A DNA stretch of 64,000 bases, taken from a virus. This document shows positions 33,991 through 53,340 of this stretch, piece by piece; the first letter of the stretch is position 1; the number at the start of each line of letters is the position of its first letter. The stretch covers positions 1 to 64,000 of the IMG/VR virus record IMGVR_UViG_3300036791_001436. One strand, written 5' to 3'. The notes beneath the pieces were generated by a model, which was given only the letters and a program-made list of their open reading frames with translations, ran no database searches and was not told the DNA's origin. The position numbers and the translations under genes were made by a program.

Positions 33991-34479
33991 CTAACCGAAC
34001 TCCCAAGGGAAGACGACCCAATTATTCGGTATCTCGGTACCAGGGAACGAGATCGGAGGGCGGTGCCCCTTGTAGAACATCACCGCAGTAGTGGCTTCAG
34101 GGAGTAGCCAGCGCGCCCAGGTCATAGTGCGCCCTGTATCCCAGAGGTCGTCGACGATCAGCGAGTCCGGGTTGTTGTACTTGGCTCGGTATTCTGGCAG
34201 AGTCATCTGCGGGCGCGGGAGCAGCTCCCCTAGTCGACGACCGTCCTTATACCCCATTACCCGAACGGATTCAAGGTTGGTCACGTTGAACCTATGGCTG
34301 AGCAGAAGGCCAGCGAACCACCCACCACGCCCTATAGCGAGCAATCGGTCAGGCTTGTACTTGTGCTCAAGCATAACCCTATGCAGGTGATTGACCGCTA
34401 GCTCCGCGGTCGCCCAACTGACGTATACCTTAGGTGCCGGCTCAGGAGCGACCGCGCGTGAGTTAAGCTCTGACGGCAT
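33991..34479 (-). CDS. purine (xanthine/guanine-type) phosphoribosyltransferase
   Basis: Motifs AIGRGG, PRPP-binding LIVDDLWDTGRT and C-terminal WVVFPWE. Start ATG 34479 with SD AAGGAG. Confidence 0.85.
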   Translation of the reverse strand: MPSELNSRAVAPEPAPKVYVSWATAELAVNHLHRVMLEHKYKPDRLLAIGRGGWFAGLLLSHRFNVTNLESVRVMGYKDGRRLGELLPRPQMTLPEYRAKYNNPDSLIVDDLWDTGRTMTWARWLLPEATTAVMFYKGHRPPISFPGTEIPNNWVVFPWEFG

Positions 34480-35209
34480 CGAAGAACTCCTTCCGCAGAG
34501 GCGGGTTGGTGAGGAATCGTCCGCCACAGCGGTCGGTGACAGTCTTGGAGTTTTGCTGTTGAGCGCCCCTGGCCTTCATGCACATGTGCGTTGCCTTGAT
34601 GCACACAGCGATGTCCGTGGTGCCGAGGATGTATGCCAGCGCCTCGTAGATCTGTGCAGTCAGACGTTCCTGCACTTGAGGGCGCCGAGCGAAGAACTCT
34701 GCCACACGGGCGAACTTGGATAGGCCGAGGAGTTTGCGGTTGGGAATGTAGGCGATGTGCGCCACCCCGTCAATAGGCATCAGGTGATGCTCGCATAGAC
34801 TCATGATCTGGATATCCTGCACCAGCACCATCTGGTCGTAGGCGCCGTGTGCTTCCTCTGGGGGAGGGGCGTTACTGCCGGTCCCTGTAGCGGCGGGGAC
34901 TAGTACGGGCCGAAGCACACCATTCGGCACCACCGTGCACTCAGGGAAGCGTTCGTAATCCAGGCCGGCACAGAACTCCTCAATGAACATCTTCGCATAC
35001 CGGGCCGGTGTACGCATTAGGGAAGGATTGGTCAGGTCCAGCCCAAGATGGTTCAGGGCGATGCACAAGGACTCTTCGATGTAGGACTCTGCCAGTTTGA
35101 AGTCCGGGTCGTCCTTGAGAGGGGTCTCGAACCCCATCTTGACAAGGTGTTTGCGGACCTCCTCGCCTAGGGCGGGGTTGGTGATGTACTCGCTACCGAG
35201 TCGTGCCAT
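34463..35209 (-). CDS. folE: GTP cyclohydrolase I
   Basis: Motifs TPARYAKM, SLCEHHLMP, GLSKFAR, RPQVQERLT and HMCMKARG. Confidence 0.95.
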   Translation of the reverse strand: MARLGSEYITNPALGEEVRKHLVKMGFETPLKDDPDFKLAESYIEESLCIALNHLGLDLTNPSLMRTPARYAKMFIEEFCAGLDYERFPECTVVPNGVLRPVLVPAATGTGSNAPPPEEAHGAYDQMVLVQDIQIMSLCEHHLMPIDGVAHIAYIPNRKLLGLSKFARVAEFFARRPQVQERLTAQIYEALAYILGTTDIAVCIKATHMCMKARGAQQQNSKTVTDRCGGRFLTNPPLRKEFFDAVRA

Positions 35210-35492
35210 TCGTAGCCTCTGCCTGCTTGCGTTGCGCCATTTGGTCCATCTTGCGGCGGCGCTTGATTTCCCTGCGGACGAACCATAGAGCTTTCTCTAG
35301 GTCTTCGTACGGGCAAGGGTGCTTCTCGTCACACCGCCAGAGGTATTGCATGGCGCTGCCGATGTTGAACGGCATGTGCTCGACTATCTCGATGCACTCT
35401 ACGCCCGAGGGGTGATGGTTGTAATGAGGCGGGTGGTTGATCATATCTACCACCGCAGGCTCGTGTTCACGTGGAACGACTGTCATTGACAT
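35193..35492 (-). CDS. DUF3310 family protein (T7 gp1.7 nucleotide-kinase-like)
   Basis: Motif DMINHPPHY..GVECIEIV..FNIGSAMQYLWR..EDLEKALWF. Confidence 0.8.
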   Translation of the reverse strand: MSMTVVPREHEPAVVDMINHPPHYNHHPSGVECIEIVEHMPFNIGSAMQYLWRCDEKHPCPYEDLEKALWFVRREIKRRRKMDQMAQRKQAEATNGTTR

Positions 35493-37933
35493 GTGCTATA
35501 TCCGCATCCCTTACAGATCATGCATCCCGATTCAGAGACGTACTTGTATTCGTAGCACTTCGGGCACTGCTGGACCATCGCTGCCAGTATGCGCGCCTCG
35601 ACTGCACTGAAGTCCATGTCGATAAGCCGAGGCTTAGAAGGGCTCAGGGGCACCACCTTATGTTCCGGAGGCTCTGTAGCTGGCTGGTACAGAGGATCGA
35701 ACGGAGGGGTCATCTGCTCCAGCTTCGAGCCGATGTAGGCGACTAGACTGGGATAGTACTGGCCTTCTGCCCATGCCCCTTCCAAGCTGCTTAGCTGCTT
35801 CAGTTCCTTTGCCAGGTCTTCAAGGGTGAACCCGTACCGGAGTACTAAGCTCATGAGTAGGGAGGTAGTGGTCGTCCACTCCATGCTGCGCTGGTCTTTG
35901 GAGTTGAAGAATATCTCCCAGGGAGTTCCATCCGGAAGATAGTTGATCGTCAGGTAGAGGGCGGAGTTGAGGTTTGGCCAGCGGAGCTTGATTGTTCGGC
36001 CGACGAGCATTTCACTTCGCTCACGGCTGCCATTCCCGTTCGTGCCATTCTCTTGGTGCGGAGTCTCGTCAGGCGTCTCACCAGCCCGGGAGAGAATCGC
36101 TCCACGCACATCGCTAGGGCGATAAGTTGTACAGCCTTTGCAGCCGGCGTCATACGCGAGGGAGTAGACATTGCGGAACTCCTCAAACGTGGTCTCCTTG
36201 GGGAGGTTGATAGTCTTGCTGATGCTTGCGTCGATCCACTTCTGGCAGACTTCCTGCATCCGAATGTGTTCGTGGATCGCCACATCCTCTGCCGTGTTCA
36301 TATGGCGAGGGAGCTCGTCGTCGGGGTGCAGAGAATGCCAAAGCTTGGCAGCGTAGGAGTACTCGGTATAGGGTTTGTAGCTACCATCACCCTGCAGGAC
36401 GTTCCTCTGCATCTCGTGGGCGAACGTTGGCTCGAGCCCGCCGTCGATGTTGCCGTAGGCGATTGAGGTAGTGCCCGTTGGAGCGACGGTTAGGAGCACC
36501 CCATTCCGCAGACCGCGCTCCCGGATCCTATCTTGTAGGGTGTGGGGCAACATGGTGCCAGCGAACCCTTCGAAGAACTGCTCCGCAGAGAACTTCGGGA
36601 ATGGGTCCCGCTCGATGGAGAGTTCCACCGACGTCTCGTATGCAGTGATGCAGAGGGTCTGGATGATCTGCTCTGCCAGCTGGAAGCTGCGCACACTTCC
36701 GTAGCGGGTCCCCATCTGGGCGAATGCGTCGCCGAGACCAGCAACTCCGAGTCCCAAGCGGCGCTTGGCGATCTCTTCTTCACGTTGCTGTGGGAGTGGG
36801 TAGTTTGTGACGTCGATCACGTTGTCGAGGAATCTGGTGCCGATCCGTGCGACGGTCTTCAGGAGCTCGAAGTCGAAGTAGGCGTCGTCGGTGAATGGCT
36901 TCTGCACCATCCTGGATAGGTTCACCGCACCTAGGTTGCACGTACCGTGTGGCGGTAGCGGTTGCTCGCCGCAAGGGTTCGTACAGTGGATGTACTCGCA
37001 GTACTGCAGGTTGTTGAGGTCGTTGATGCGATCAATGAAGATGACACCGGGCTCTGCGTATTCATAGGTTGACTGAAGAATTTGATCCCAGAGATCTCGG
37101 GCTCGGTGGACTGCGTACACGTACTGCTTGAGTCCTGTCTCGTCTTCGTCCCAGTCCAGGTCGATCAACTTGCGAGGGCGCTCGAATGCAGGGGGAACGT
37201 CGAAATGTAGGTACCAGTCTTCGTCCTCTTCGATTGCTCCCATGAAGGCGTCGGAGATCAGGACGGACACGTTGAAGTTGGTCAGCCGACCCTTCTCATG
37301 CTTGGCGGTAACGAACTTCAGGAGGTCAGGGTGGGTGTCGCTGATGGTCGCCATCATGGCGCCGCGACGGTCTCCAGCGGACTTGACAGTTGAACATGCA
37401 GAATTCCAGGTATCCATAAAAGGAAGTGGACCTGATGCAACTGACCCCGTCCGTCTGAGAATGGCACCGGAAGGACGTAGCGTGGAGAAGTCAGTGCCGA
37501 TGCCGCCGCCTTGCTGCCCAGTGAGCATGATATGCTTGAGCGCATCTGCAATGAACTCCATGCTGTCTTCAATGCGGTCGTTGACGTAGCAGTTCATCAA
37601 GGTGACTACCTTGGCAGTGCCGGCGCCAGCCAGGATACGGCCGCCAGGCATCCAGAGGTAGTTCTTCATCGCCACTTCGGCGAGGTCTCGGTTCTTGGAA
37701 CCGATGTCACTCAGGTCCTTGACGTAGATCCCGGACACTACTCGCGAGCACAGATCGTCCCAGGTCTCGATGCCGTAAGCGTACTTGCTCTTGAATATGT
37801 CGGCGACCAGGGGGCTGGAGTAGATGTCGAAGGAGTCGTGCTCCTTCGGGCGCTGGGAGAGGGTGTTGCGTTCTGCTTCGAACCACTCTGCCGAATTGTA
37901 TTCAGGGGCTGGGGCTGGCTTACGGAGGGCCAT
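35483..37933 (-). CDS. nrdJ: class II (B12-dependent) ribonucleotide reductase
   Basis: Motifs PGGRIL, NCYV, GGGIG, TNPCGEQPL, CNLG and VAPTGT. TSCPD-like domain and a C-terminal Cys ribbon. No beta-subunit gene seen. Confidence 0.9.
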   Translation of the reverse strand: MALRKPAPAPEYNSAEWFEAERNTLSQRPKEHDSFDIYSSPLVADIFKSKYAYGIETWDDLCSRVVSGIYVKDLSDIGSKNRDLAEVAMKNYLWMPGGRILAGAGTAKVVTLMNCYVNDRIEDSMEFIADALKHIMLTGQQGGGIGTDFSTLRPSGAILRRTGSVASGPLPFMDTWNSACSTVKSAGDRRGAMMATISDTHPDLLKFVTAKHEKGRLTNFNVSVLISDAFMGAIEEDEDWYLHFDVPPAFERPRKLIDLDWDEDETGLKQYVYAVHRARDLWDQILQSTYEYAEPGVIFIDRINDLNNLQYCEYIHCTNPCGEQPLPPHGTCNLGAVNLSRMVQKPFTDDAYFDFELLKTVARIGTRFLDNVIDVTNYPLPQQREEEIAKRRLGLGVAGLGDAFAQMGTRYGSVRSFQLAEQIIQTLCITAYETSVELSIERDPFPKFSAEQFFEGFAGTMLPHTLQDRIRERGLRNGVLLTVAPTGTTSIAYGNIDGGLEPTFAHEMQRNVLQGDGSYKPYTEYSYAAKLWHSLHPDDELPRHMNTAEDVAIHEHIRMQEVCQKWIDASISKTINLPKETTFEEFRNVYSLAYDAGCKGCTTYRPSDVRGAILSRAGETPDETPHQENGTNGNGSRERSEMLVGRTIKLRWPNLNSALYLTINYLPDGTPWEIFFNSKDQRSMEWTTTTSLLMSLVLRYGFTLEDLAKELKQLSSLEGAWAEGQYYPSLVAYIGSKLEQMTPPFDPLYQPATEPPEHKVVPLSPSKPRLIDMDFSAVEARILAAMVQQCPKCYEYKYVSESGCMICKGCGYSTCQ

Positions 37934-37941
37934 CGGTACCT

Positions 37942-38280
37942 CTACTGTGCGACGCGTTCAATCTCTGTGAAGGTATCCGTCTGCGGACGGATCGGCGGTG
38001 CAGTGCGGATCAGAGCGCGAAGGGTTACCACCTCGCATAGAGTATGGCCCTTCTTGCGGTGGCCACCCATCACCACGCGATCCATGAGCGTTGCCGCTCG
38101 ATCTGCGAGTCGTGGGCTGATCGAGAACTGCCCAAGGTTCTTGATGGCGGTTATCAGCACCCCTACGGTGAGTGCCCCGCTCCCGCGGAAGTATGCGTGC
38201 GACAGGATCCAGAATTGGGTAGTGGCCTGTTCGTTGGATTCTGGGTCATAGGCGGGCTTCGGTTGTAGTGACTTTATCAT
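37942..38280 (-). CDS. hypothetical protein
   Basis: Fills the gap upstream of nrdJ. SD GGGGA. Confidence 0.5.
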   Translation of the reverse strand: MIKSLQPKPAYDPESNEQATTQFWILSHAYFRGSGALTVGVLITAIKNLGQFSISPRLADRAATLMDRVVMGGHRKKGHTLCEVVTLRALIRTAPPIRPQTDTFTEIERVAQ

Positions 38281-38310
38281 TGTTGGTCTTCCCCTATCCT
38301 CAACGAGGAT

Positions 38311-38344
38311 GAGCCCCCAGCCAGCGGTACCTGACTGAGGGCTC
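38311..38344 (-). terminator. hairpin downstream of the Pro-rich gene
   Basis: GAGCCCTCAGTCAG/CTGGCTGGGGGCTC stem on the minus strand. The U-tail is weak. Confidence 0.4.
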
Positions 38345-38414
38345 CCCTTGTGTCACCTCGCGGATGTGTGCCGGCTTACAGGCACCGCAAGGCTTAGCAA
38401 GTCTGCGTTACCCG

Positions 38415-38921
38415 CTATGCCTTCGGCTGCGGGAGATCGGCCGGATGCGTTGGATGCGAGTCGGCGTCGATCACCACCCAGCGGAAGCCGACATAGGGGA
38501 TGTAGACGAGGATCATGACGTCGCCCTGCACCCCTCCGAGCGGCGGCCACACGGTGCCAGGCGGCAGCGCGATGGGATGCTCCGGCGTTCCCGTGACAAC
38601 CGGCGGCAGCGTGTTGTCCACGTGCGGCGGTGCTTCACCTCCCCAGATCCCCGGGGGAGGCGGAGGGAGAGTGTTGTCGGGCCCGACAGGCGGCGGCCAG
38701 AGACCCACAGCCGGCGGCAGTCCCTGATCCGGATGGGGAGGCGGAGCACCACCCCAGATCCCCGGAGGCGCTCCACCTGGGGCGATCGGGTGGCTCGGTG
38801 CCCCTGGACCCGGCCAGACGCTCGGCGGAGAACCGCCAGGTGCAATGGGGTGGGTAGGCGTTCCGCCTCCGCCACCGCTGTGTGCCAACGGTGTGATCAG
38901 GGCGAGGAAGGGTTCAGACAT
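38415..38921 (-). CDS. Pro/Gly-rich repeat protein
   Basis: Repeats PxHPIA, PPGIWGG and (P/V)DNTLP. SD AGGAG. Has its own promoter. Confidence 0.75.
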   Translation of the reverse strand: MSEPFLALITPLAHSGGGGGTPTHPIAPGGSPPSVWPGPGAPSHPIAPGGAPPGIWGGAPPPHPDQGLPPAVGLWPPPVGPDNTLPPPPPGIWGGEAPPHVDNTLPPVVTGTPEHPIALPPGTVWPPLGGVQGDVMILVYIPYVGFRWVVIDADSHPTHPADLPQPKA

Positions 38922-39016
38922 AACTTCTACTCTCTCCTAAGTAGTGGCGTCTGCCACGGTTGAACGCACTTGTCTCGCCCCCGCCGTACTCTTCGGTCTC
39001 ACTATATGCTATAAGT

Positions 39017-39045
39017 ATTATATAGCATACTAGCGAAGGAATCAA
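39017..39045 (-). promoter_or_regulatory. sigma70-type promoter
   Basis: TTGATT-N17-TATAAT. Confidence 0.8.
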
Positions 39046-39096
39046 GAGGCAAAATGATGGGCGCCCCAATTTACTTTTGGCTCAGTCTTAGCCCTC

Positions 39097-41508
39097 CTAT
39101 GCCGCCTCCTGTAAGGGTTCCCACTCCTGCATTGCGTCCGAGTCCCAACGTTCACCGAACTTCGCATCGGCGACGAACGGCACTCGTGTAAGGCCCCAAT
39201 CTCTTGGTACTCTGGCCATCACCCCGAGCACGTACGTTAGCGATTCGTCCAAGGCCTGACGGTCCTGACGGATCTTGAAGTAGATGCTGTCGTGCACTAG
39301 GTTGCAGATCCTAGCATTCCACCGCTCGCGAAGCACGGGGGCCACCTCGCAGGCGGCCACGGTGTTGATGTCGGACGCCGTGCTTGAGTGGGGGTAGTTC
39401 GCGGCCTCGTTCTCAAGGTCGTGAAGGTTCTCGTAGCTGACCACACCCCACCTCTTTTTGCGTCCGAAGTTGGTGATCATCGTCCATCCTCGTGCAGGGG
39501 CTTTGCGCGAGTCCATGATGAACTCCTTTGCCCGAGGAAACTGGGCAAACCACCCATCGATGTACTCTTGCGCCACTTCGGTCGTGGTGTCGAATTCCTC
39601 TGCCAAGGTCCATGCAGTGCGCCCATATACGATACCAAACGTGACCGCTTTCGCTCTCATGTACTGCTCGTGGTTGTAGTTCTCCCCAAAGTATCGTCGT
39701 GACACAACCTTGTGGATGGAGGTCTTACCCTCCACGTAGATCTCGCATAGGGAAGGGTCGCCGCTCATAACAGCGAGGCATCGGAGCTCGGCTTGGTTCA
39801 GGTCAGCCTCAACTAACCACTCATCGGGGTCCGCAATGAACTGCCGACGGATGAAGGGACCGCGCTCCATGTTCTGTAGGTTGGGGTCCTTAGAGGCTAG
39901 ACGTCCATTCACAGTCCCATGGATCAGGTAGCTCGTATGAACCTTCCCGTCCTTGTATCTCCACCCGAGCGCGGGCTTAACGTAAGTGCCGTGGCGTTTG
40001 GCGAGCTTCCTTACGCGCTGGATGGGGCGCACAATGGGATGATTGTGCTTGCGCTGGATCTGGATGATCGCCTTGGCGTCTGTGGAAGTGCCGATGGGGC
40101 CTAGCTTCATCCGGTTGTATAGGAGATCCCCCAGCTGTGCTGGGGAGTTGACGTTGATCGGGGCCCCGCAGTACTTGATAGCGTATGGCTGGATCTTGGC
40201 AACTTCCGCTTCGATCTCATCCTTGCACAGCTTGTCGTTCGTTGCGACTACTTCTGGGTCTAGGAGGATACCTTCCAGTTCCACCTCTGCCAGCATTTCG
40301 GAGGCTGGGATCAGTACACGGCGGTACAGCTTGGAGAGGTGTGGGTCCTTAGTGATCCGGGGCTGCTGCGCAAAGAATATCTGGTGCGTCTTGGCAATGT
40401 CATATGCTTGGTACTTGTAGAGAGCCTCTCTAGGTACGAGAGCATACGAGCGGTCGGCTTTCTTGTACCGCTTCAGGTATTGGTCTAGTTCCGCCTTGTG
40501 ATGCGGAGCACCGAGTTCCCGTAGGGCAATTTGATCCAAGTCGTGCAGACCGCGCGTCTCGTTGAGCGCATAGGACTGTAGCATAGTGTCTTCATCGACA
40601 CGAGCTCGTATGCCTTCTGCCCGGAAAAACTTAACGTCAAACTTGCCGTTCTGCCAGATCCATCTGGGTCCACGGGACTCCATGAGCCTCCGGGTAAGAG
40701 ATTCGGCCCGCCAGATAAGGCGGTTCGGGATGATGTAGACATGCTCCCCATTCCACGTTACACCATGTGATATCATCCAGTCGCTGAGGAAGTCGAACCC
40801 AGAGGTCTCGATGTCCCCAGTCAGGTACGGTTGCTTGATGGCCTTATGTACGAACGCGGCATACTCTGGGATAGTTTTGATCACTCTGTAGGTAGGTGGC
40901 TCCCACACATCTGGTGGGCGGTCTTGTGCTAAGAGAACTGCCTTCTTCAGATCCCGCTGCCACTCCGAGTACCCTCCCCCACCTTGCTTCATCAGGAACG
41001 CAGGGTGCACCGCCAGTACTACTCCGTGCTTGGCGAGTGAGGTGGGGATGACTTGCCCACGCACACGGGTAATCTTGATGTTGGTAATGCCGGTTAGGCT
41101 TACGGCTGCATGCTGCCCTAGTGCCAGAATGACTTTGCGAGGGTGCGCGCGGATCTGGTTGATGAGCCGCTCGTGGCAAATGCTCACAGCCCGTGGCATC
41201 CGATCGTCGTCCTTCACCTTCGGGAAGCACTGGATCGCATTGAGGATGAGCGGTTTGATGTGGGGAGGCAGACCTACCTTTGCCAGGATGGTCTCTAGCA
41301 TCTCTCCTGAGGGCCCAACAAACGGGACCCCACGTGACAGCTCTTGCGCCCCTGGGCTCTCTCCGACTATCACGAATGGAGAATCAGCGGGGCCCCTTCC
41401 CCCTACTTTGAGCCCTCCGAAGGGACACCCATTGCAGCCTACTGGCCGCTGGTCTAGAGGGACCCTAGGAATGAGGCGTAGGGCGGACGCTAGAGGATGG
41501 ACAGCCAC
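39097..41508 (-). CDS. polA: family A DNA polymerase with an N-terminal family-4 uracil-DNA glycosylase domain (SPO1-like)
   Basis: UDG domain: CNGC, GESPG, PFVGPSG and HPA. Exonuclease motif DIETSG. Polymerase motifs DLNQAELR, AKAVTFGIVYG and VHDS. Confidence 0.93.
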   Translation of the reverse strand: MAVHPLASALRLIPRVPLDQRPVGCNGCPFGGLKVGGRGPADSPFVIVGESPGAQELSRGVPFVGPSGEMLETILAKVGLPPHIKPLILNAIQCFPKVKDDDRMPRAVSICHERLINQIRAHPRKVILALGQHAAVSLTGITNIKITRVRGQVIPTSLAKHGVVLAVHPAFLMKQGGGGYSEWQRDLKKAVLLAQDRPPDVWEPPTYRVIKTIPEYAAFVHKAIKQPYLTGDIETSGFDFLSDWMISHGVTWNGEHVYIIPNRLIWRAESLTRRLMESRGPRWIWQNGKFDVKFFRAEGIRARVDEDTMLQSYALNETRGLHDLDQIALRELGAPHHKAELDQYLKRYKKADRSYALVPREALYKYQAYDIAKTHQIFFAQQPRITKDPHLSKLYRRVLIPASEMLAEVELEGILLDPEVVATNDKLCKDEIEAEVAKIQPYAIKYCGAPINVNSPAQLGDLLYNRMKLGPIGTSTDAKAIIQIQRKHNHPIVRPIQRVRKLAKRHGTYVKPALGWRYKDGKVHTSYLIHGTVNGRLASKDPNLQNMERGPFIRRQFIADPDEWLVEADLNQAELRCLAVMSGDPSLCEIYVEGKTSIHKVVSRRYFGENYNHEQYMRAKAVTFGIVYGRTAWTLAEEFDTTTEVAQEYIDGWFAQFPRAKEFIMDSRKAPARGWTMITNFGRKKRWGVVSYENLHDLENEAANYPHSSTASDINTVAACEVAPVLRERWNARICNLVHDSIYFKIRQDRQALDESLTYVLGVMARVPRDWGLTRVPFVADAKFGERWDSDAMQEWEPLQEAA

Positions 41509-42323
41509 TGCCGCACCGCCCTGATGTTGTCAAGTGCGTGTGGGTGGTCGTCCAGAGTTCCTTTCTCGAACCAGTTCTTCGGGCGAGGCTCTTGCTTGTG
41601 GCTCGGGCTTAGTTGTTGGGGATGGCGTATAGGGACTGCCGAGTCAATTCCTAACACCCCCGTCTGTCGAGCCGCCTGTAGATCATCCCATATGTTGTCA
41701 CTGAACCCCAGCAGGTGGATGTTGATGTCCGGCCGTATGAGATGGATGTACTGCACCGCCGCTGTTCGCATTGGCCCTAGTAGGCGAGGTACTCCTGCCC
41801 AGGTGATCAGCGGGAAGGCCTTGGTGTCCAGTAGGAAAGCGTCTGCGATGTTGGTGAACTCCTCCCAAGAGGGGCCATGCGTCACCAGCATGAATCCTTC
41901 GCTGAGGTCCACGATGTCACTTTGTACCCACTCACTGTAGGCGATCGTGCTACGGAGAGCGGTAATGTCGGCGCTGCCCATCTCATCTGGAAGTACTGGC
42001 ACTAGACGGAGGCGCGAGAGCCGATGGGCGTGGATGGGTTCGGCTGTGGAGATGGCCTTGAGCGCGGCCTCCATCACGTCTATCGGGATGGGTATCCCCA
42101 ACTCCACGATGCTGTTGTCCATGATCACGACAACGTCCCCGCCTGCAGTGGTGAGGATGTATTCTCTGAACCTAGCGGTGAACCGTTCTGGGAACTCCAG
42201 TACGTGGTGCGCCAGGAGGAGATGGTAGTCCCCGAATACAAAAGGGGACATCTCCTCCAGGATCTGGATGGGAGCAACAGGTGCGAACTTCGGGTGGTGG
42301 GTGGGGTGGTTGTTGATTGTCAT
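41490..42323 (-). CDS. TGT-fold, DpdA-like deazaguanine transglycosylase candidate
   Basis: True start ATG 42323 (ATGA overlap with queE). Motifs IMDNSIVELG, VLPD, IHLLG and GIDSAVP. Sits inside the que operon. Confidence 0.65.
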   Translation of the reverse strand: MTINNHPTHHPKFAPVAPIQILEEMSPFVFGDYHLLLAHHVLEFPERFTARFREYILTTAGGDVVVIMDNSIVELGIPIPIDVMEAALKAISTAEPIHAHRLSRLRLVPVLPDEMGSADITALRSTIAYSEWVQSDIVDLSEGFMLVTHGPSWEEFTNIADAFLLDTKAFPLITWAGVPRLLGPMRTAAVQYIHLIRPDINIHLLGFSDNIWDDLQAARQTGVLGIDSAVPIRHPQQLSPSHKQEPRPKNWFEKGTLDDHPHALDNIRAVRQWLSIL

Positions 42324-43171
42324 CGTGCGCGCTCGTTTCCCCAGATGAGTACGTGAAGTTGTGGCAGGTACTTCCAGTGTGCCAGTCGCCAGTCGTTCAG
42401 GAAGTCCTGCTCCAGAGAGTCCTTGAAGTCGCGGAGTAGCAGTTTGGGGATATCTTCGTCCCCCTCTGCTGCCTGAAATCCTCTGGCGGGAATTGGTGGC
42501 CACGGATTGCCGACAGAGAGGAATCGCTCCTCTCTTGGGAAGACGTAGTAGTCCAGGAGTGCATCCACTGTGATGGCGAACTCTAGGTCCAGTGCCGAGA
42601 AGACGATGACTTTGATGCTGGTCATGGTGCCACTGCAACGCATCAGGAAGTCGGAGAACTTATCTGGCTCGAACTTCTCTCCCATGCCAGGACCCTTTGG
42701 TGAGATGGTCACCTGGTTGCACAAGGCCACCCAGTCTTGCCAGATGGTCCCTTGGGTCTCTAGGGCGACCTTGAATCCTCGTTGTTGTAGGGAGCGGACT
42801 AGATCACCCCCTTCTTCCCAGATGGCTGGGTTGCCTCCGCTCAGAGTCACCCACTGAGCTAGCCGACCGCATTTTTGGGCGACCTCTTCCGCTATTTCCT
42901 CCGGGTACATCCACGTTGCGTGCGCGTGGATAACTTGAGGGATCACTGCGAACAGGGAGTCGCACATCCTGCAGCGGTAGTCGCAACCTCCTAGTCTGAC
43001 GAACATCGTTTTGGTGCCAATCATGACACCCTCGCCTTGGATGGTAGGGCCGAAGACTTCCATCACGGGGAGCTTGCCTCGCTTCCCTTCGTCCTGATCG
43101 GGGAGCGGTGCTGCCTTGAGCTGGGCTGCCTCAGTCGGGTCGGATCTCGTAGCTTGCGGAATTTCCGTCAT
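42320..43171 (-). CDS. queE: 7-carboxy-7-deazaguanine synthase (radical SAM)
   Basis: Motifs EVFGPTIQGEG, CDYRCRMCDS, VTLSGGNP, ETQG, ISPK and LPQLH. Confidence 0.95.
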   Translation of the reverse strand: MTEIPQATRSDPTEAAQLKAAPLPDQDEGKRGKLPVMEVFGPTIQGEGVMIGTKTMFVRLGGCDYRCRMCDSLFAVIPQVIHAHATWMYPEEIAEEVAQKCGRLAQWVTLSGGNPAIWEEGGDLVRSLQQRGFKVALETQGTIWQDWVALCNQVTISPKGPGMGEKFEPDKFSDFLMRCSGTMTSIKVIVFSALDLEFAITVDALLDYYVFPREERFLSVGNPWPPIPARGFQAAEGDEDIPKLLLRDFKDSLEQDFLNDWRLAHWKYLPQLHVLIWGNERAR

Positions 43172-43589
43172 GTTCCGACACTGTCACTTTCTCTAGTTGT
43201 ACCCGCCCGTCTGATTGGGAGGCGATGAAGGAGTAGGCGTGTTGGAAGATATGGGCAGCGAAGGCCTCGATCCCTACTTGTGGGAGCACTATGAGGTCTG
43301 CCGCTTTGGCGATCTGGAGTTCCCTGAATGTGCTGATCAGAGGATCGTCGGCAGCCACTAGCAGCTTATGGTCGAACTGCTCCTGGAGCCACATCTTCAG
43401 TTCCTTGAGCCCGCCGAAGTCCTGCACCCAGCCATTCTCGTCAAGGGCAAACGCCGAGAACTCGAAGTGGATCTTCAACGCATACCCATGCAGGTAGTGG
43501 CAGTGGGAATCCGATCGCCATTGCCTGAAGCAGCAGCTTAGACCTTGTTCGTGCCCATAGGTCTTGCTGCTAGTGAACCTATGTTCCAT
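43131..43589 (-). CDS. queD: 6-carboxytetrahydropterin synthase
   Basis: Motifs HCHYLHGY, WVQDFGGLK, FDHKLL and VSEHDGNSA. Confidence 0.92.
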   Translation of the reverse strand: MEHRFTSSKTYGHEQGLSCCFRQWRSDSHCHYLHGYALKIHFEFSAFALDENGWVQDFGGLKELKMWLQEQFDHKLLVAADDPLISTFRELQIAKAADLIVLPQVGIEAFAAHIFQHAYSFIASQSDGRVQLEKVTVSEHDGNSASYEIRPD

Positions 43590-43594
43590 GGCTG

Positions 43595-44389
43595 CTACTC
43601 CGCCAGGTAGACGGTTGGGTCGTGGACGATCGCATCGTGGAACGCTTCCCTACGTGCGATACAGGTTGGGCAGACACCGCAGTGCCGGCTCTCACCTGCA
43701 TAGCAGCTCCAGGTGTCTGCGAAGTCGACGTCCAGGGAGTCACCGAGTTGCACGACTTCGGACTTCACCATGTGCACCAAGGGAACGCGAAGGCGCACCT
43801 TCCCGTAGGTGCCGATCTGGATGGCTGCCGCTTGCGCACCGAGGAACTCCAGAGTGCAGTCTGGGTATGCGTCTCTGGCTGCATCGTCGGCGTGCATCCC
43901 AGCGTAGAGAATGGCGTTGGCCTGTGCTAGGCTCTTCTCTGCTGCCATCACCCAGGACTGTGCCCTCGCTGCCATGATGCTGAGCATTGTCCCGTTGCGA
44001 TAGCTGACGTAGGTTGGGGAGATGCCTTCGGGAAGCTCCCCGTACGACATCTGGGGGATGGGTTCGTTCACTTCCTTGTCCACCAACATTCCCGTGAAGG
44101 ACCCTTGGATGTTGACAACGATGTGCTCGGCCTCGAACTTCTTGGCTTGCCTGCGGGCGTACTCGATCTCCTTCTTGTGCCGTTGCCCATAATCGAAGGT
44201 CAGGCACTCGATCTCAGCACTGGGGAATTGGTCACGAGCGAACGCCAGGACGGTGCTGGAGTCGACTCCTCCCGACAACATGACGAAGCACTTGGTGACC
44301 ACGAGCGGGGGCTTGGGTCTCGGATCCCTAAATGTCGAAGTCAGGGTCTGGGGTAGGTCTGACTCTGTGGAGGTAGGGTGATCGACCAT
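43595..44389 (-). CDS. queC: 7-cyano-7-deazaguanine synthase
   Basis: Motifs SGGVDS, FDYGQRH, YVSYRN, YPDC and TWSCY..HCGVCPTC. No fused GAT domain. Start likely ATG 44389. Confidence 0.95.
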   Translation of the reverse strand: MVDHPTSTESDLPQTLTSTFRDPRPKPPLVVTKCFVMLSGGVDSSTVLAFARDQFPSAEIECLTFDYGQRHKKEIEYARRQAKKFEAEHIVVNIQGSFTGMLVDKEVNEPIPQMSYGELPEGISPTYVSYRNGTMLSIMAARAQSWVMAAEKSLAQANAILYAGMHADDAARDAYPDCTLEFLGAQAAAIQIGTYGKVRLRVPLVHMVKSEVVQLGDSLDVDFADTWSCYAGESRHCGVCPTCIARREAFHDAIVHDPTVYLAE

Positions 44390-44636
44390 GTTGGCCTCTA
44401 GCTTGTGGGTCGGAGGGTGGAGACTGGGCAAGACGTCGGAGCTCGGAGATGGGGATGCGATAGTTGCGCCCCATGTACTCGCCCTTGATCTGCCCAGTCT
44501 TGATCCAGTTCAGTACCGTGTGGTAGTGTACGTGGAGTAACGGTGCAGCGCGACGAGGCGATATCCATCCTCGGAGGTTGAGGATCTCCGCCGCCGTGAG
44601 ACCGGCGACTTCTTCTTCAATGTCGTTGGGGGACAT
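44328..44636 (-). CDS. excisionase-like HTH (HTH_17/MerR-like) DNA-binding protein
   Basis: ISPRRAAPLLHVHYHTVLNWIKTGQIKG..YRIP. Confidence 0.75.
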   Translation of the reverse strand: MSPNDIEEEVAGLTAAEILNLRGWISPRRAAPLLHVHYHTVLNWIKTGQIKGEYMGRNYRIPISELRRLAQSPPSDPQARGQHGRSPYLHRVRPTPDPDFDI

Positions 44637-44673: not shown

Positions 44674-45204
44674 TTACAAAGGGTTGCTGAAACCGCCCTG
44701 CGCCGCACCTTGCACCGGTGCCAGGACGTCCTTCACCTCGTTGCGGCGCTCGCCTTGGTAGAGGCGGATCCCCACCTTGGCGCGCAGCGGCTTGCCGAGG
44801 AGCAGGCCTTCGTCGGCGACGAGCTTCGGGTTGAAGTTCGTCACGATCAGTTCCGGTGCGACCTTCATGAGGAAGGACTTGCCACGGGCGATCATGTTCT
44901 CCGCCCAACTAACGTTCAGGAAGAGCTTCCTGTTGACGAGGTCCTTGGACTCGTCGTCGTCGACGGCCAGCTTGATCGCCCACATGGGCTTGCCGGCGGC
45001 ATTGGAGAGCTTGTACTCGCACTCCTCGATCGTGCTGGGGTAGAGTCCAGCCGGGAGCACAGGGAAGCCCTTGTCGGCTTCGACGTCGGTGAGGTCGACG
45101 GTGAAGCCTTCACCGCCCTCGTATTGCAGGCCTTGGGTGTCCTGCTCGTGCTCCTGCTCTTGAGACAGGTCGACTTCGTTGCCGTGTTCGTCGGTCATGG
45201 ACAT
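44674..45204 (-). CDS. DUF669-like single-stranded DNA-binding protein
   Basis: Motif FPVLPAGLY..SNAAGKPM..RNEVKDV. Highly biased codons. Adjacent to a Sak4-like ATPase. Confidence 0.75.
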   Translation of the reverse strand: MSMTDEHGNEVDLSQEQEHEQDTQGLQYEGGEGFTVDLTDVEADKGFPVLPAGLYPSTIEECEYKLSNAAGKPMWAIKLAVDDDESKDLVNRKLFLNVSWAENMIARGKSFLMKVAPELIVTNFNPKLVADEGLLLGKPLRAKVGIRLYQGERRNEVKDVLAPVQGAAQGGFSNPL

Positions 45205-45255
45205 GTTGGTTCCTTGGGCTTGGTTGGGTTTGGGTTAGGGGTTGGCCAGTTGAGG

Positions 45256-46317
45256 TTACGCCGGCTGCGCCAACTTGAAGGCAGCCATGATGCTGCCCAT
45301 AGTTGGGTTGTCGAAGTACGCCTGCTTATATGAAGCCCGACGATTCTTAGCGTCGAACTTCACTCCAGACTGGGGCTGGATATACAGTCGGCGTAGATCG
45401 GGTGAGCTGGGGTCTGCTTGTGAAACTACCATGTATCCCACCAGGTCGACGAACGACTGGATCTGCGTGGCGAGCTTGCCCGTCATCCAGGGAGTGAAGT
45501 GCATCTTCTTCAACTCGTCCTGGGCATAGGACTGCCCGCAAATGATGAGAAGGTTGATAGGCAGGTCGCGGAACGCTCTCACGATCGCCTGGATGGCGTT
45601 GTTGTTCTTCCTGAACTCTGGGAAGCCTGCGATCGGCATCTCGTCACCAGCTTCCCACGCCATCGCATCTGGCCCTACACCACCCAGCCCCATCACTTTG
45701 GCCAGGTTCATCTGTTCGATCTCCGTCAGGGAGTCGATGATGACAGTGCGAAAGCGGCGCAGACGGTCGATCTCTTCTGGAGGGACACCGAAGGTCTGGC
45801 TTTGGATCTGGCGTAGCACCGGTTCGTTGTTCGTGTCCCGCGCACGACAGTGGTGTTGCAGGAACTCGTAGATCTTCCGGAGCTGCTCGATCTGCGTGAC
45901 GCGCACCTCGTCGATCATCTCGTAGTTCAGCACACGGTCGTTGTCCTCCAGGACTAGCTCGCCGCCTTCTGCCGACAAGAGGAGGATGTCCTGCATTGAG
46001 GGAACATCGACTGCGCTGCCGCATAGTGTGGTCTTACCTGTCCCTGCTGGCCCATAGAAAAGAGCCTTGATGTAACGGTTCTTCAGGGGGCTAGAGATGC
46101 CGCCGATCTTGAAGAACGCAGGGTTGGGGACGCTCAGAGCAGTTCTGGTAGGACCCGCTCCTGCTTGAGCTGGCGCTGGTGCGATCTTGGGTGCTGGTGC
46201 TGGCGTGGGCGCAGGTGCGGTTGGTGTGGCCGGCTTGACAGGTGCCTGGCCTGGCTTCAGCGTAGTAGGAGCTGGTGAGGCGGGAGCAGTTGGGGTGCCT
46301 GTGGTGGTCATGGTCAC
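45256..46317 (-). CDS. AAA_24/Sak4-like ATPase (ssDNA annealing)
   Basis: Motifs YGPAGTGKT, VIIDSLTE, FVDLVGY and DAKNR. Confidence 0.8.
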   Translation of the reverse strand: MTMTTTGTPTAPASPAPTTLKPGQAPVKPATPTAPAPTPAPAPKIAPAPAQAGAGPTRTALSVPNPAFFKIGGISSPLKNRYIKALFYGPAGTGKTTLCGSAVDVPSMQDILLLSAEGGELVLEDNDRVLNYEMIDEVRVTQIEQLRKIYEFLQHHCRARDTNNEPVLRQIQSQTFGVPPEEIDRLRRFRTVIIDSLTEIEQMNLAKVMGLGGVGPDAMAWEAGDEMPIAGFPEFRKNNNAIQAIVRAFRDLPINLLIICGQSYAQDELKKMHFTPWMTGKLATQIQSFVDLVGYMVVSQADPSSPDLRRLYIQPQSGVKFDAKNRRASYKQAYFDNPTMGSIMAAFKLAQPA

Positions 46318-47756
46318 TCGTGATCTACAAGGTTGATGGTCGGGTTGAGGCCAACTTCTTGGTTGCCTTCTTCCTCTTCCACACCGGCCGTCCTGAGGAC
46401 GACATGTGGGTCCGCACGCTCTCGGGTGTACTCGTCACCCTGAGAGGGGTCCTTCCATTCGGGAGGAGGCTTGAAGTCGTTGATGTCGTCAACGTCGTCT
46501 GCGGCGATCTCTGCCCGGTATTGATCTTCTCGCGACCGTTGCTGGATCAGCCCGAGGTCGATATCTGGAAGGCGGTCCTGTGGCACTCCCTGCAGGCGCT
46601 CGTGGAGCACACGGGGGTCAGGAAGTCGGGAGCGCCAAAGGCGATCCACTTCTAAGTCACGCTCACAGTAGTCTGCTTCTAACTCCAGCTCCCAGTCTCC
46701 GCCGTCGTCTAGGGATACGCACGGGCTCAGGAAGCTGCATAGGCGGAAGCAGTCACGTGTTGGGTTCGGGTACAGCGGGAGATCTGGGTTCAGCATGTCC
46801 TCCAACTCCAGGAGGATCAAGATCCCTTGTGACTGGATCTGTTGCACTGTACGGTTGATCTCATCCCGCCGTACATAGCGGTCGCGGTTCTCGTTCTCAG
46901 AGGAGGCCAGCGCCCATAGGAAGTCGATGTTGGCCTTAGGCGCGGCGTCGACGGAGTTGTAGAGGTCGAGTAGTCGCTGCCGGTATAGGGATTCAGAGGT
47001 CACTAGGTTCTGCGCTGTGGATACTTTCCCCGATTGCAGGATCCTGGGAGGGTCAGGGGCTCGCTTCCAGAACTGATGGTAGATCACCCCTACTACCGGT
47101 TGCTCGTAGATCTGCGCACCTGCCCACACGTATCGCGATACTTGCGGGTCAGTCATGTAGTGTTGGGTCTGGATAACCTTGGCGGTCTTGTACTCGTCGA
47201 TCAGGAGAGTGTCGTAGTCTCCCTGGACTACTCTGTCGATCGTACCGCGGTAGAGGATGATGTCAATCCCCAACTGGGCGCATAGGGCTTGGATGGTGGG
47301 GTTGATCGATGGGGTGATCGGGATCTCGAAGTTGACCTCTACCTGAGGTTCCGAGACTCCCGTGATTGGGTTTGGTGCCCAGAAAGTTTGGTCATTACGC
47401 TTATGGCGCAGCCAGTTGTACTGGTAGTACCGCATCATCTGCTGGCCGAGCACGAAGAGGTCAGCGTAGTCCGAGGGAAGATCGCGGACGTAGTTCTGCG
47501 CTGTGGCGATGCAGTAGGCGATGAAGGCGCGCTCGGCCGAGTCGAAGACCCGATACCCGTGGAAGTCTTCCAGCGCGTAGTGGACCCCCGACCCGAACCA
47601 GAGCGGGCTCGCCAAATGGATGGGCCCAAGGTTCATCTGGAGGTGGCTGCCCCAACCCCACTTCCGGCGACACTGCTTGAAGTTGATGGAGTCGCTCGTA
47701 CGGAAGATCGCAGCGTTGCGTCCATCTGCTAGCCGTGTCAGGTTGAGCCGACGCAC
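46314..47756 (-). CDS. PD-(D/E)XK Cas4-like exonuclease
   Basis: Motifs FKQCRRKW, FGSGVHYALE, GTIDRV..IDEYKT and C..C...C. Confidence 0.8.
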   Translation of the reverse strand: MRRLNLTRLADGRNAAIFRTSDSINFKQCRRKWGWGSHLQMNLGPIHLASPLWFGSGVHYALEDFHGYRVFDSAERAFIAYCIATAQNYVRDLPSDYADLFVLGQQMMRYYQYNWLRHKRNDQTFWAPNPITGVSEPQVEVNFEIPITPSINPTIQALCAQLGIDIILYRGTIDRVVQGDYDTLLIDEYKTAKVIQTQHYMTDPQVSRYVWAGAQIYEQPVVGVIYHQFWKRAPDPPRILQSGKVSTAQNLVTSESLYRQRLLDLYNSVDAAPKANIDFLWALASSENENRDRYVRRDEINRTVQQIQSQGILILLELEDMLNPDLPLYPNPTRDCFRLCSFLSPCVSLDDGGDWELELEADYCERDLEVDRLWRSRLPDPRVLHERLQGVPQDRLPDIDLGLIQQRSREDQYRAEIAADDVDDINDFKPPPEWKDPSQGDEYTRERADPHVVLRTAGVEEEEGNQEVGLNPTINLVDHE

Positions 47757-47795
47757 GCGTGAGATCCCTATGACTTGAACACATCCAATCTAACT

Positions 47796-47824
47796 ATACT
47801 ATACTAGATCAGAGGGGAAATCAA
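47796..47824 (-). promoter_or_regulatory. sigma70-type promoter of the recombination/que/pol operon
   Basis: TTGATT-N17-TAGTAT. Confidence 0.6.
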
Positions 47825-47945
47825 CAGGAATCTTTTGGGCGGTCCATAAATTTATTGTACCTCGCCGGAGGTAGTAAGGTGGGCAAATTCTCCCTTAACG
47901 GGGAGCGAAAGACACCCGTGAGCTCCTGCGAGGCTGGCCGTGGCC

Positions 47946-49496
47946 CTAGTCGGCGACAGACTCTGTGACCATAGCTTTTGCTCCCTTTGTTAGAAGGGTC
48001 TTGATGTGCTTCGGGTAGGTGAGGAGGCGGGTCACATTCCACCCCTTTGCCATGATATACTCCCACAGGTCGATGTCGAAGGTATCCTGGCATTGGCAGT
48101 AATAGGCGAAGCATGTGTCTTCCGAGGTGAGACGGTGGAGACGATCCTCAGCCTGTTCGTTCTCGTCCTTGTCCCACTCGTACCCGATGAAGGCGCAATA
48201 GCTGGCGTACGGTGCTAGCTCGAAGGATTCCGCGTACTTGATCGTGCACACGATCACCCCTGTTGGGGATTGGGACCATGCCTTGATGATCTCTTCCTGC
48301 TCTATCGGGTTCACTCCTCCTCTGAGGATCCAGGTTGGCAGGTTCCGTGCGTTGCGAAGGTAGTCCGCGAAGTGATCGCACGGTGCCCTATAGGGGGTGT
48401 ATATGACGTACTTCGAGATGTCGTTCTCGGCGAACTCGTCAGCCACTGCTTCGATCGCTGCGCCGACCCCTAGCTGCTCGTTGAGGGCCTTGGGACATAC
48501 TAGAGCCATCCGAGCAGCGTGGAGAGCAGCTAGTTCGTTGGCACGGACAATGAAATCCCCATCTGGTAACTCGGCGAGCGAGTCTTCCCGTAGGGACTCG
48601 TATAACTTCCGCTGCCAGGGCTCCAGTTCATACTCCAGCGGGAGCCGAACCTTGTCCTTCAGGTGCTTGGCTACCTGGTGCTTCTTGACACTGGTGAACC
48701 AAGGGGCTACTGCATTCTGCCACTGAGGTATGTTCTTGGGCCCTAGGATGGTCTTCCCGTACCCGGAGTCGTCAATCAGGCAGAACATGTTGACGTACTT
48801 CCAGTAGGAGCTCCAGGTTCGAGGGTCCAAGATGTTGAGCGCTGGCCAGATATCCTGGGGCCCCGTGGTGATAGCGCTACCAGAGAGGAAGATTTTGACC
48901 AGGGGGCGCGGTGAATAGGCTAGGTGCTGCTTCAGGAGTTTGAACGTGGCGGAGTCCTTATGGCGCATGTACCGATGGAACTCATCGAAGATCCATCCTG
49001 GGGACTTCCAGACCCATTGGGGAACAGCGTCCGTGGTGTTGACGTGCTTGCCAGTGCGACGTGCGCTGTCGGAGAGCAGAGTGGCCGCTGGGATGACGAA
49101 CACCTTGGCCTCTGGATTCCCCCATTGTTGAGCGCGAATGGCTCTCCCCTTGTCACCTACTGCGCTCTTTGGGGCGTACACCAACTGGACCTTGGCCGCA
49201 TCCTCTGGGAGCCACTTTTCTGTTTCCTTCTTGTAGGTACGGAGACCACGCCCAGTGGTGAGAACGATAAGGGGGTATGCATTAAAATGTCGGGCAATTA
49301 GCAGGGCGAGGATGGTCTTGCCTAGTCCCTTATCCACACCAAAGATATGTCTGCCGGCACGGAGACGGACCCCACGATCGTAGCAGACTAGTCCATAGGG
49401 GTGCAGCTCGATGTTCTGGGGGTAGGGTTGTTGTACATGACGGTTCTCGATGTACTGCTCGAACTCGTCCAGCTCCGCTTCTTGGGTCTGGGTCAT
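47946..49496 (-). CDS. SNF2-like SF2 helicase
   Basis: Motifs DKGLGKT, IFDEFH, LSGS and QAEDRLHR. Confidence 0.85.
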   Translation of the reverse strand: MTQTQEAELDEFEQYIENRHVQQPYPQNIELHPYGLVCYDRGVRLRAGRHIFGVDKGLGKTILALLIARHFNAYPLIVLTTGRGLRTYKKETEKWLPEDAAKVQLVYAPKSAVGDKGRAIRAQQWGNPEAKVFVIPAATLLSDSARRTGKHVNTTDAVPQWVWKSPGWIFDEFHRYMRHKDSATFKLLKQHLAYSPRPLVKIFLSGSAITTGPQDIWPALNILDPRTWSSYWKYVNMFCLIDDSGYGKTILGPKNIPQWQNAVAPWFTSVKKHQVAKHLKDKVRLPLEYELEPWQRKLYESLREDSLAELPDGDFIVRANELAALHAARMALVCPKALNEQLGVGAAIEAVADEFAENDISKYVIYTPYRAPCDHFADYLRNARNLPTWILRGGVNPIEQEEIIKAWSQSPTGVIVCTIKYAESFELAPYASYCAFIGYEWDKDENEQAEDRLHRLTSEDTCFAYYCQCQDTFDIDLWEYIMAKGWNVTRLLTYPKHIKTLLTKGAKAMVTESVAD

Positions 49497-49834
49497 GGGA
49501 GTTCGATCCCGTACTTCACTTTGAACCCCTCAACGAACCTGTTCAGTTCGTCGGCGATCTGCCCCATGCGGATCTCATCTGCCGGGGTGGGTTCTTCACT
49601 ACCAGGGTCGAGCATTGTCATTATGGAACCGAGGAGGTGTTGGGCTCCAGCGAAGAATGCCATGCGCATTTCCTCCAGTTGGATCTCCGGGGCGTCAGGA
49701 GGAATTGCCATCTCTCGCATGCCCAGCCACCCTGCTTCGATCAGCAGGCCGTCGGCAACCGCTTTCCTCGTGACCTTGGCGACAATTGCCTGTAGGCGTT
49801 CTCTGTCTTGAGCTTCGCGCTCTTCGTTGGTCAT
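49493..49834 (-). CDS. hypothetical protein
   Basis: ATGA overlaps on both sides. Contains EMRMAFFAGA. Confidence 0.6.
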   Translation of the reverse strand: MTNEEREAQDRERLQAIVAKVTRKAVADGLLIEAGWLGMREMAIPPDAPEIQLEEMRMAFFAGAQHLLGSIMTMLDPGSEEPTPADEIRMGQIADELNRFVEGFKVKYGIELP

Positions 49835-53311: not shown

Positions 53312-53340
53312 ATTATATAGCACCCAACGAGTGACCTCAA
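53312..53340 (-). promoter_or_regulatory. sigma70-type promoter
   Basis: TTGAGG-N17-TATAAT. Confidence 0.75.

Follow-up and report, generated by a model that had tools for sequence, protein, structure and literature searches.

Phage DNA that carries 7-deazaguanine defeats many restriction systems. To our knowledge, the published scheme for this modification covers the synthesis and insertion of the base, and neither the full replacement of G in some phages nor the fate of the excised guanine. The closest described systems are those of the DpdA3 phages CP220, phiST and immuto (PMC10516641), which encode FolE, QueD and QueE together with a short (~260-280 amino acids, aa) enzyme of the tRNA-guanine transglycosylase (TGT) fold without the Zn domain. 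The same combination was identified in the virus record IMGVR_UViG_3300036791_001436 (75,339 bp, CheckV 100% complete, GC content ~58%), the first 64 kb of which constitute the stretch analysed here (the window). The cluster described below joins these genes to a gene for a Gpt-like phosphoribosyltransferase (PRTase), and it belongs among the phage 7-deazaguanine systems; its transglycosylase is from a probable sister group of DpdA3.

The window transglycosylase and DpdA3 are alike in escaping detection by the Pfam TGT model, and a Gpt-like PRTase is likewise present in all three DpdA3 phages. The window differs from these phages in that its pathway ends at QueC, with no DpdL, DpdM, DpdN or QueF, and in its proteobacterial host range (relatives infect Brevundimonas) as opposed to Bacteroidota or Campylobacter. 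Cultured phages with the gene order of the window are the Brevundimonas phages vB_BpoS-StAshley and MaInes (ON529865, ON529866). In StAshley the order runs from a DNA-binding protein through queC, queD, queE, a small open reading frame (ORF), the dpdA-like gene and polA and, further on, to a ribonucleotide reductase (RNR), a gene at the kinase position, folE and the PRTase gene; identity between the proteins of the two phages and those of the window is 43-44% for DpdA and 35% for the PRTase. Both phages carry a class I RNR (NrdAB) and a T5-type deoxynucleoside monophosphate (dNMP) kinase (PF21448), whereas the window carries NrdJ and a DUF3310 protein. In the StAshley record the counterpart of the helix-turn-helix (HTH) gene of the window is a 'putative DNA-binding protein', and the DpdA-like gene is annotated as hypothetical only.

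The link between the PRTase and the que genes is a real variant of wide occurrence, and no description of it was found in the searchable literature. The sequence-only reading of this DNA had placed the PRTase outside the standard dpd scheme, and indeed the searchable (open-access) dpd literature makes no mention of a PRTase; the open-access full-text literature contains no discussion of a PRTase in the context of phage deazaguanine or DpdA, and the terms 'phosphoribosyl', 'salvage' and 'kinase' do not occur in the text of Cui et al. 2023 (PMC10516641). As to its function, belief is moderately in favour of a role in which guanine is recycled by the PRTase to GMP and GTP for FolE and free guanine is removed.

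Linkage of the phosphoribosyltransferase to FolE and the que genes

The best 80 of 352 IMG/VR relatives of the PRTase were picked without regard to que genes, and their 10-kb flanks were scanned with hidden Markov models (HMMs) built for the purpose. FolE, QueD, QueC or DpdA was found within 10 kb of the PRTase in 62 of the 80 loci, a count that rises to 68 when QueE is included, although other radical-SAM enzymes may also be picked up by the QueE model. The association of the PRTase with the que genes is non-random, and the distribution of the PRTase clearly departs from the independence that the sequence-only reading had named as refuting the linkage. In most of the 12 loci without a que gene, the contig is short or the PRTase lies close to its end.

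Within these loci the partner of the PRTase is FolE. It lies within 10 kb in 50 of the 80 loci and is the immediate neighbour (<300 bp) in 30 of these 50, the PRTase preceding FolE in 17 and following it in 12; the corresponding adjacency counts are 16/64 for QueE, 4/34 for QueD, 1/15 for QueC and 1/17 for DpdA. The binomial probability of the FolE adjacency is 6e-18 at an assumed p of 0.1, a value that rests on adjacency within loci and not on a random-gene background. One 433-aa ORF (L114:8920-10218, +) combines a PRTase (residues 138-216) with a complete FolE (residues 258-432), both above Pfam cut-offs, and on this domain content it is a natural PRTase-FolE fusion. A tblastn search of the isolate collection with the PRTase matched 15 records, of which 11 are Brevundimonas, Cellulophaga or Flavobacterium phages; three of these 11 were inspected (StAshley, phiST and immuto) and carry deazaguanine genes. 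The remaining four records are short or unannotated.

These counts bear on the alternative that fares best, namely that the PRTase serves generic purine salvage, boosting GMP, GTP and dGTP from degraded host nucleic acids, and stands near folE as nucleotide-metabolism genes cluster. Such a role would suit an enzyme that resembles standard Gpt, is accessory within its clade (3/10, see below) and is encoded in a block that includes NrdJ, with ThyX further along. It is nevertheless regarded as rather unlikely: it accords poorly with 62 of the 80 closest relatives lying near FolE, QueD, QueC or DpdA, with the 30 immediate FolE neighbours and the existence of a fusion, with the predominance of the three phage groups among the isolate matches and the deazaguanine genes of the three that were inspected, and with the absence of the PRTase from four que-bearing, partly modified phages.

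Identity of the phosphoribosyltransferase

By sequence, the window PRTase matched only 6-oxopurine PRTases in the PDB (P. horikoshii 1vdm, 4e-9; E. coli xanthine-guanine PRTase (XGPRT), 1e-8). The best PDB matches of its AlphaFold2 (AF2) model (predicted local distance difference test score (pLDDT) 90.6) were E. coli XGPRT complexes with guanine or GMP (template modelling (TM) score 0.72-0.80, 26-27% identity). The sole NCBIfam match is Gpt NF006613 at 55.7 bits against a cut-off of 138, so that the equivalog threshold is not reached, and the Pfam PF00156 score is slightly under threshold; as judged from these scores, the enzyme is a Gpt relative and not an equivalog. With E. coli Gpt/XGPRT (PDB 1A95-1A98, 1NUL, 4JIT) it shares the size class, the fold and the catalytic and purine-binding motifs, and it differs in the Trp of DDLWDTG (Val in Gpt), in a loop region ~8 residues longer, and in being phage-encoded and linked to FolE.

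A word-indexed homologue search with the PRTase returned only the query itself, and an exhaustive HMMER search was required, which yielded 1,137 representatives at E <= 1e-3. Across the best 40 of these 1,137 relatives RGG, DDL(W)DTGxT, a Lys and W-x-FPWE are kept. RGG is taken here to be the pyrophosphate (PPi) loop and DDLxDTG the phosphoribosyl pyrophosphate (PRPP) motif, while the Trp of W-x-FPWE presumably stacks on the base; the Asp of DDLxDTG is assumed to be equivalent to Asp92 of Gpt and Asp137 of hypoxanthine-guanine PRTase (HGPRT), acting on the purine N7. The features of a type I 6-oxopurine PRTase (PRPP motif, RGG, Lys and base-stacking aromatic) are all present in the window enzyme. 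Its RGG-to-DD spacing of 59 residues belongs to the long class (46-71 residues), with a flexible-loop region of full length; the spacing in E. coli Gpt is 51 by count, and a short class (29-33 residues) comprises immuto (29) and many fusions. The window PRTase shows no deletion of ~20-30 residues in the stretch from RGG to the PRPP motif, and this region is modelled at pLDDT 63-73. Guanine or another 6-oxopurine is the probable substrate.

A PF00156 PRTase encoded together with FolE, QueD and QueE, with or without QueC, is shared by the window and the TubE/ToyH clusters of Streptomyces (tubercidin and toyocamycin; PMC6112128). By description, the latter have no transglycosylase and contain GMP-reductase, PurA/B-like, decarboxylase and phosphatase genes, unlike the window.

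The DpdA-like transglycosylase

The transglycosylase gene had been read as a 382-aa ORF; its start was corrected to the ATG at 42323, giving 277 aa. The protein has no match in Pfam, PHROG or NCBIfam, and its family (A1, ~600 proteins of roughly 265 aa) is without a Pfam domain; the sequence profile of the family gave no match in the PDB. The top PDB matches of the AF2 model (pLDDT 92) were all bacterial TGTs (E ~1e-5, TM ~0.6). Among the viral models of BFVD the match was phiST M4SLA5 (259 aa, E 1e-8), equal in length to CGPG_00065, the phiST protein named DpdA3 by Cui et al. 2023 (PMC10516641). A DpdA3 profile (A3) was built from 15 DpdA3 proteins, and hhalign aligned the A1 family with it over the full length (99.3%, E 8.8e-21, 241 columns). 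Against immuto gp206 alone the value was 94%, and against phiST DpdA3 alone the alignment was not significant, significance being attained only with the 15-sequence profile. Identity to DpdA3 is ~20%, and tblastn with either query misses the other group. Because of this low identity the family is considered separate from DpdA3, and on the strength of the profile alignment it is treated as a sister clade. The label "TGT/DpdA-like" given to the gene by the sequence-only reading is borne out by the TGT fold, the DpdA3 profile match and the coupling to queE.

Residues D69/N70/S71, D113, H203 (in HLLG) and D227/S228 are invariant in the A1 alignment. The motifs that contain D69, D113 and D227 (DNS, PD and IDS) succeed one another as the catalytic motifs do in TGT, whose catalytic Asp residues in the Z. 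mobilis enzyme we take to be Asp102, Asp156 and Asp280. Since hhalign of the A1 family against E. coli Tgt was not significant, this mapping is an analogy only; Pfam TGT (PF01702) also gives no match.

Longer ORFs with some resemblance to these enzymes were noted in other phages. On a T4-like contig of 156 kb (90% complete) with the order QueE, PRTase, exonuclease, FolE, 421-aa ORF, 351-aa ORF, QueD, the 421-aa ORF (L118:11563-12828, +) has HLLG...DS motifs at DpdA-like spacing and no significant profile match, and it may be a further divergent DpdA. ORFs of ~510-530 aa on the contigs behind L101, L102, L076 and L080 weakly match the C-terminal half of the DpdA3 profile (E 1e-5 to 2e-4) and may represent a longer DpdA-like form in large PRTase-bearing phages.

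Conserved context of the transglycosylase clade

Sixty IMG/VR loci encoding A1 relatives were sampled for context. The polymerase match starts at most ~1.3 kb from the start of the dpdA-like gene in 57 of the 60 and lies 2-3 kb downstream in the other three (L011, L018, L037), and in 59 the polymerase opens with a family-4 uracil-DNA glycosylase (UDG)-like domain; in the window polymerase this domain shows the motifs GESPG and HPAF as well as N-terminal Cys residues. This arrangement suggests that base exchange is functionally linked to the replisome or to the UDG-like domain. The genes queC, queD and queE lie upstream of dpdA. Most loci have folE between queE and dpdA; in the others it lies further downstream, past polA and the RNR. 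The PRTase lies within 10 kb in only five of the 60 loci, each time directly after a folE in the downstream position. Among contigs of the clade that are >= 90% complete it occurs in 3/10; the PRTase is accessory, being dispensable in about 70% of complete relatives.

Occurrence of the phosphoribosyltransferase and level of modification

Profile searches of whole records detected the PRTase in CP220 (CPT_0182), phiST, immuto and StAshley, and none in 9g, CAjan, Rosebush or Dp-1. Complete replacement of G by DpdA3 has been described for CP220, phiST and immuto, and modified G amounts to 25% in 9g and 32% in CAjan (Cui et al. 2023, PMC10516641). The PRTase is present in 3/3 fully and 0/4 partly modified phages (Fisher p ~0.03). 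Rosebush and Dp-1, which are counted with the latter, are reportedly partly modified.

CPT_0182 of CP220 (L153:6870-7283) has 137 aa, belongs to the short-loop class and is encoded two genes before a radical-SAM gene. The 2010 CP220 record carries the remark 'purine phosphoribosyltransferase domain' for it, and it is not discussed in the accessible deazaguanine papers. In phiST, a MazG-like pyrophosphatase (CGPG_00068, L005:9176-9763) is encoded directly beside folE and could be relevant to dGTP exclusion in that phage; the window genome has none.

Proposed guanine recycling and alternative explanations

Reading of the cluster as a preQ0-type 7-deazaguanine DNA-modification system with a DpdA-type transglycosylase is supported by the gene content. 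FolE, QueD, QueE and QueC are all encoded, FolE and QueE scoring above their equivalog cut-offs and QueC 3 bits below. Because the pathway ends at QueC, deoxy-preQ0 (dPreQ0) is predicted as the final base; the level of modification and the direction of flux given below are likewise predictions.

In the proposed mechanism, preQ0 would be made from GTP by FolE, QueD, QueE and QueC, and the DpdA3-like transglycosylase, whose gene is translationally coupled to queE and polA, would swap guanine for preQ0 in new phage DNA. Each exchange would cost one GTP and release one free guanine. The Gpt-like PRTase would turn the freed guanine and PRPP into GMP, and host or phage kinases would return GMP to GTP for FolE, closing the purine loop. 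The process would also remove free guanine, a competitor of preQ0 for the transglycosylase, and favour base exchange. The PRTase would not be obligatory but would raise the flux for a replacement of G that is heavy and possibly complete. A genome copy of 75 kb contains ~44,000 G (a number derived from GC content and length), and with one GTP and one guanine for each of them a need for salvage is plausible.

The sequence-only reading had put forward two routes, a pre-replicative one and a closed guanine-recycling loop. The recycling loop fits better, and no sequence feature specifically supports the pre-replicative route. Recycling is favoured because both the sequence and the fold of the enzyme resemble Gpt and the N7-directed Asp is retained, because its gene adjoins or is fused with that of the GTP-consuming FolE and not with those of QueC, QueE or DpdA, because it is dispensable where host Gpt or Hpt could serve, and because it is enriched in the phages of highest flux and a coupled DpdA is present. 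It is also favoured because the genome is without MazG, HD or a similar dGTP-excluding enzyme. Known pre-replicative substitution systems (T4, Z-genome phages) have an enzyme of the dGTP-excluding type.

Several observations weigh against guanine recycling. Seven of the ten complete relatives in the DpdA clade are without the PRTase, as is, by profile search, the Chryseobacterium phage MA9V-3, whose DpdA3 is 43% identical to that of phiST, and the correlation with full replacement covers just seven phages. Adjacency or fusion with FolE cannot mean direct channelling, because GMP needs two further phosphorylations before it can serve FolE. The 7-deazaguanines keep the 6-oxo and 2-amino groups read by a Gpt-type pocket, so that preQ0 or 7-carboxy-7-deazaguanine (CDG) could also be a substrate of the PRTase. 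Residue 149 (41877-41879, -), a Gln (VxQG) in ~90% of the family, is His (VTHG) in the window transglycosylase. In TGT the corresponding motif would, by analogy, be the one with the Gln that contacts O6, and His149 could be tolerated or could alter base specificity. Finally, the activity of DpdA3 could not be shown in E. coli (Cui et al. 2023, PMC10516641).

The last point has also been counted towards the pre-replicative route, in which the PRTase would ribosylate preQ0 or CDG, kinases and NrdJ would convert the product to dPreQ0 triphosphate (dPreQ0TP), PolA would incorporate it and DpdA would patch leftover G. This route is judged distinctly improbable. It has a precedent in TubE of tubercidin biosynthesis, which uses PRPP and 7-carboxy-7-deazaguanine (PMC6112128), and ToyH-type PRTases are conserved in toyocamycin clusters; the PRTase, however, is tied to the entry-step enzyme FolE and not to QueC or QueE, which would supply the product, and it retains the N7-directed Asp. 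The presence of a PRTase in all three phages with 100% replacement, and of an ADG nucleoside in CP220-infected cells (Cui 2023, PMC10516641), would agree with synthesis before replication, whereas seven of ten complete relatives keep dpdA-polA without a PRTase and the window genome has no dGTPase, MazG or HD enzyme to exclude dGTP. The RNR and PolA are encoded in the same gene block, yet RNR class and kinase type vary among syntenic relatives, or are absent. Four near-complete PRTase-bearing contigs have no DpdA3 or TGT match, which is a further, though weak, point in favour of the route.

A set of 24 contigs with PRTase, FolE and QueE, in which PF01702 gave no match and the DpdA3 profile three weak ones, was rejected as support for the pre-replicative route. 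Contigs without a detected DpdA are not evidence, because PF01702 misses the DpdA of the window itself and the T4-like contig described above has a motif-bearing candidate.

The DUF3310 protein had been called kinase-like by the sequence-only reading, with reference to T7 gp1.7. The two proteins share the 60-residue DUF3310 domain, located at residues 122-184 of 196 in gp1.7, and the window protein lacks the 120 N-terminal residues of gp1.7, its 99 aa being essentially the domain alone. BLASTP between them gave E = 14 and hence no significant pairwise similarity, and the PHROG 'nucleotide kinase' families match the window protein only across the DUF3310 domain. A role as a kinase was rejected as unsupported, the resemblance to gp1.7 being confined to the DUF3310 domain; the T5-type dNMP kinase that StAshley has at the DUF3310 position is one hint toward a kinase role there. 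A specific coupling of NrdJ and DUF3310 to the pathway is likewise not supported; StAshley has a class I RNR and the T5-type kinase in their place. Near the 60 related clusters a NrdJ-like gene occurs in 20, DUF3310 in two and a T5-type kinase in two.

That the PRTase makes a free 7-deazaguanine nucleotide or nucleoside for use outside DNA, as a toyocamycin-like inhibitor or signal or for removal of surplus base, has precedent in the deazapurine antibiotic clusters and might account for the ADG nucleoside in CP220-infected cells (Cui 2023, PMC10516641), but it is very improbable indeed, as the scanned window ORFs include no GMP reductase, PurA/PurB-like or HAD phosphatase tailoring genes and the link is to FolE and not to the end of the pathway.

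Gene layout and flanking features

Genes were called from the ORF listing and from Pfam, PHROG and NCBIfam scans, which confirmed the named genes, all on the minus strand (Table 1). They form two strings, as had been proposed. In the first, HTH-queC-queD-queE-dpdA-polA, the genes from queC to polA overlap or nearly touch and are tightly coupled, with an ATGA overlap at the queE/dpdA junction and a 19-nt overlap of dpdA and polA; the start of queC was set at the ATG at 44389, which is preceded by a GAGG site. The second string consists of two orphan ORFs followed by nrdJ-DUF3310-folE-PRTase, an overlapping series confirmed by overlaps of 4-10 nt (nrdJ/DUF3310) and 17 nt (DUF3310/folE and folE/PRTase). 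An AGGAG ribosome-binding site accompanies the ATG of the PRTase gene, whose ORF as listed, with a GVG start, extends to 34527. A gap of 176 bp with a promoter-like site separates the two strings, and this site (39045-39017) is a candidate start of a second transcription unit.

Table 1. Positions of the features of the cluster in the window, with the matches on which each assignment rests.
Feature	Position	Strand	Evidence and remarks
HTH_17 / excisionase-like DNA-binding protein	44328..44636	-	PF12728 E 2.5e-6; PHROG excisionase/regulator; first gene of string
QueC, preQ0 synthase	43595..44389	-	PF06508 E 1.6e-48; TIGR00364 147 bits vs cut-off 150
QueD, 6-carboxy-tetrahydropterin synthase	43131..43589	-	PF01242 E 1.3e-19; TIGR03367
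QueE, radical-SAM 7-carboxy-7-deazaguanine synthase	42320..43171	-	TIGR03365 214 bits > cut-off 206; phrog_2076
Putative DpdA3-like DNA guanine transglycosylase, 277 aa	41490..42323	-	Fold and profile homology; ATG overlaps queE stop
Family A DNA polymerase with N-terminal family-4 UDG-like domain and 3'-5' exonuclease	39097..41508	-	PF00476, PF03167, PF01612; NCBIfam
Promoter-like site TTGATT-17-TATAAT	39017..39045	-	10/12 sigma-70-like consensus matches, best in region; consensus match only
Orphan ORF, 168 aa	38415..38921	-	AGGAG ribosome-binding site
Orphan ORF, 112 aa	37942..38280	-	End 8 nt upstream of nrdJ
NrdJ, class II (B12-dependent) RNR with TSCPD domain	35483..37933	-	TIGR02504 527 bits > cut-off 400; PF02867, PF12637
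Stand-alone DUF3310 protein, 99 aa	35193..35492	-	PF11753 E 4e-7
FolE, GTP cyclohydrolase I, GTP-consuming entry step	34463..35209	-	NF006824 239 bits > cut-off 202; PF01227 E 1.4e-56
Gpt/XGPRT-like 6-oxopurine PRTase, 162 aa	33991..34479	-	phrog_8995; structure-database matches; motifs

The two orphan ORFs have no family match in Pfam or PHROG and no relative in the 60 related loci. The larger of them (38415-38921) overlaps with a 199-aa ORF of the other strand (38364-38963), and the coding assignment is uncertain for this reason.

The absence of queF, a Gat-queC fusion and arcS, noted earlier for the cluster, stands when the whole 75,339-bp record is considered: neither QueF, the ArcS DUF5591 domain nor a canonical TGT was found there, and QueC is a single-domain protein, which means that there is no Gat fusion. 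A protein of the DJ-1/PfpI family (class I amidotransferase-like) is encoded at 53337-54011 (-), ~9 kb from the que genes, and is presumably different from the Gat domain of Gat-QueC. The 75-kb genome has no T5-type kinase and no recognisable enzyme that would exclude dGTP, such as MazG or an HD protein. A megablast search of the phage collection with the 10.6-kb region returned no match. The same minus-strand arm carries the thymidylate synthase ThyX (49831-50547, -) and an ATP-dependent DNA ligase (51897-52928, -), preceded by a replication module of AAA_24, DUF669, PD-(D/E)XK and SNF2-helicase genes at 44674-49496.

Significance

The cluster defines a large, previously unannotated DpdA clade of ~600 proteins whose genes are followed by a UDG-PolA gene. 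The PRTase, found in all three phages known to be fully replaced and in none of the four partly modified phages examined, offers a cheap genomic predictor of heavy modification. Were the pre-replicative route true, the 100% replacement in DpdA3 phages would take place partly or wholly during replication, and the current view that all phage 7-deazaguanine modifications are post-replicative would be overturned. If guanine recycling is true, a guanine-salvage enzyme wired to FolE would be a missing stoichiometric piece of the 7-deazaguanine scheme.

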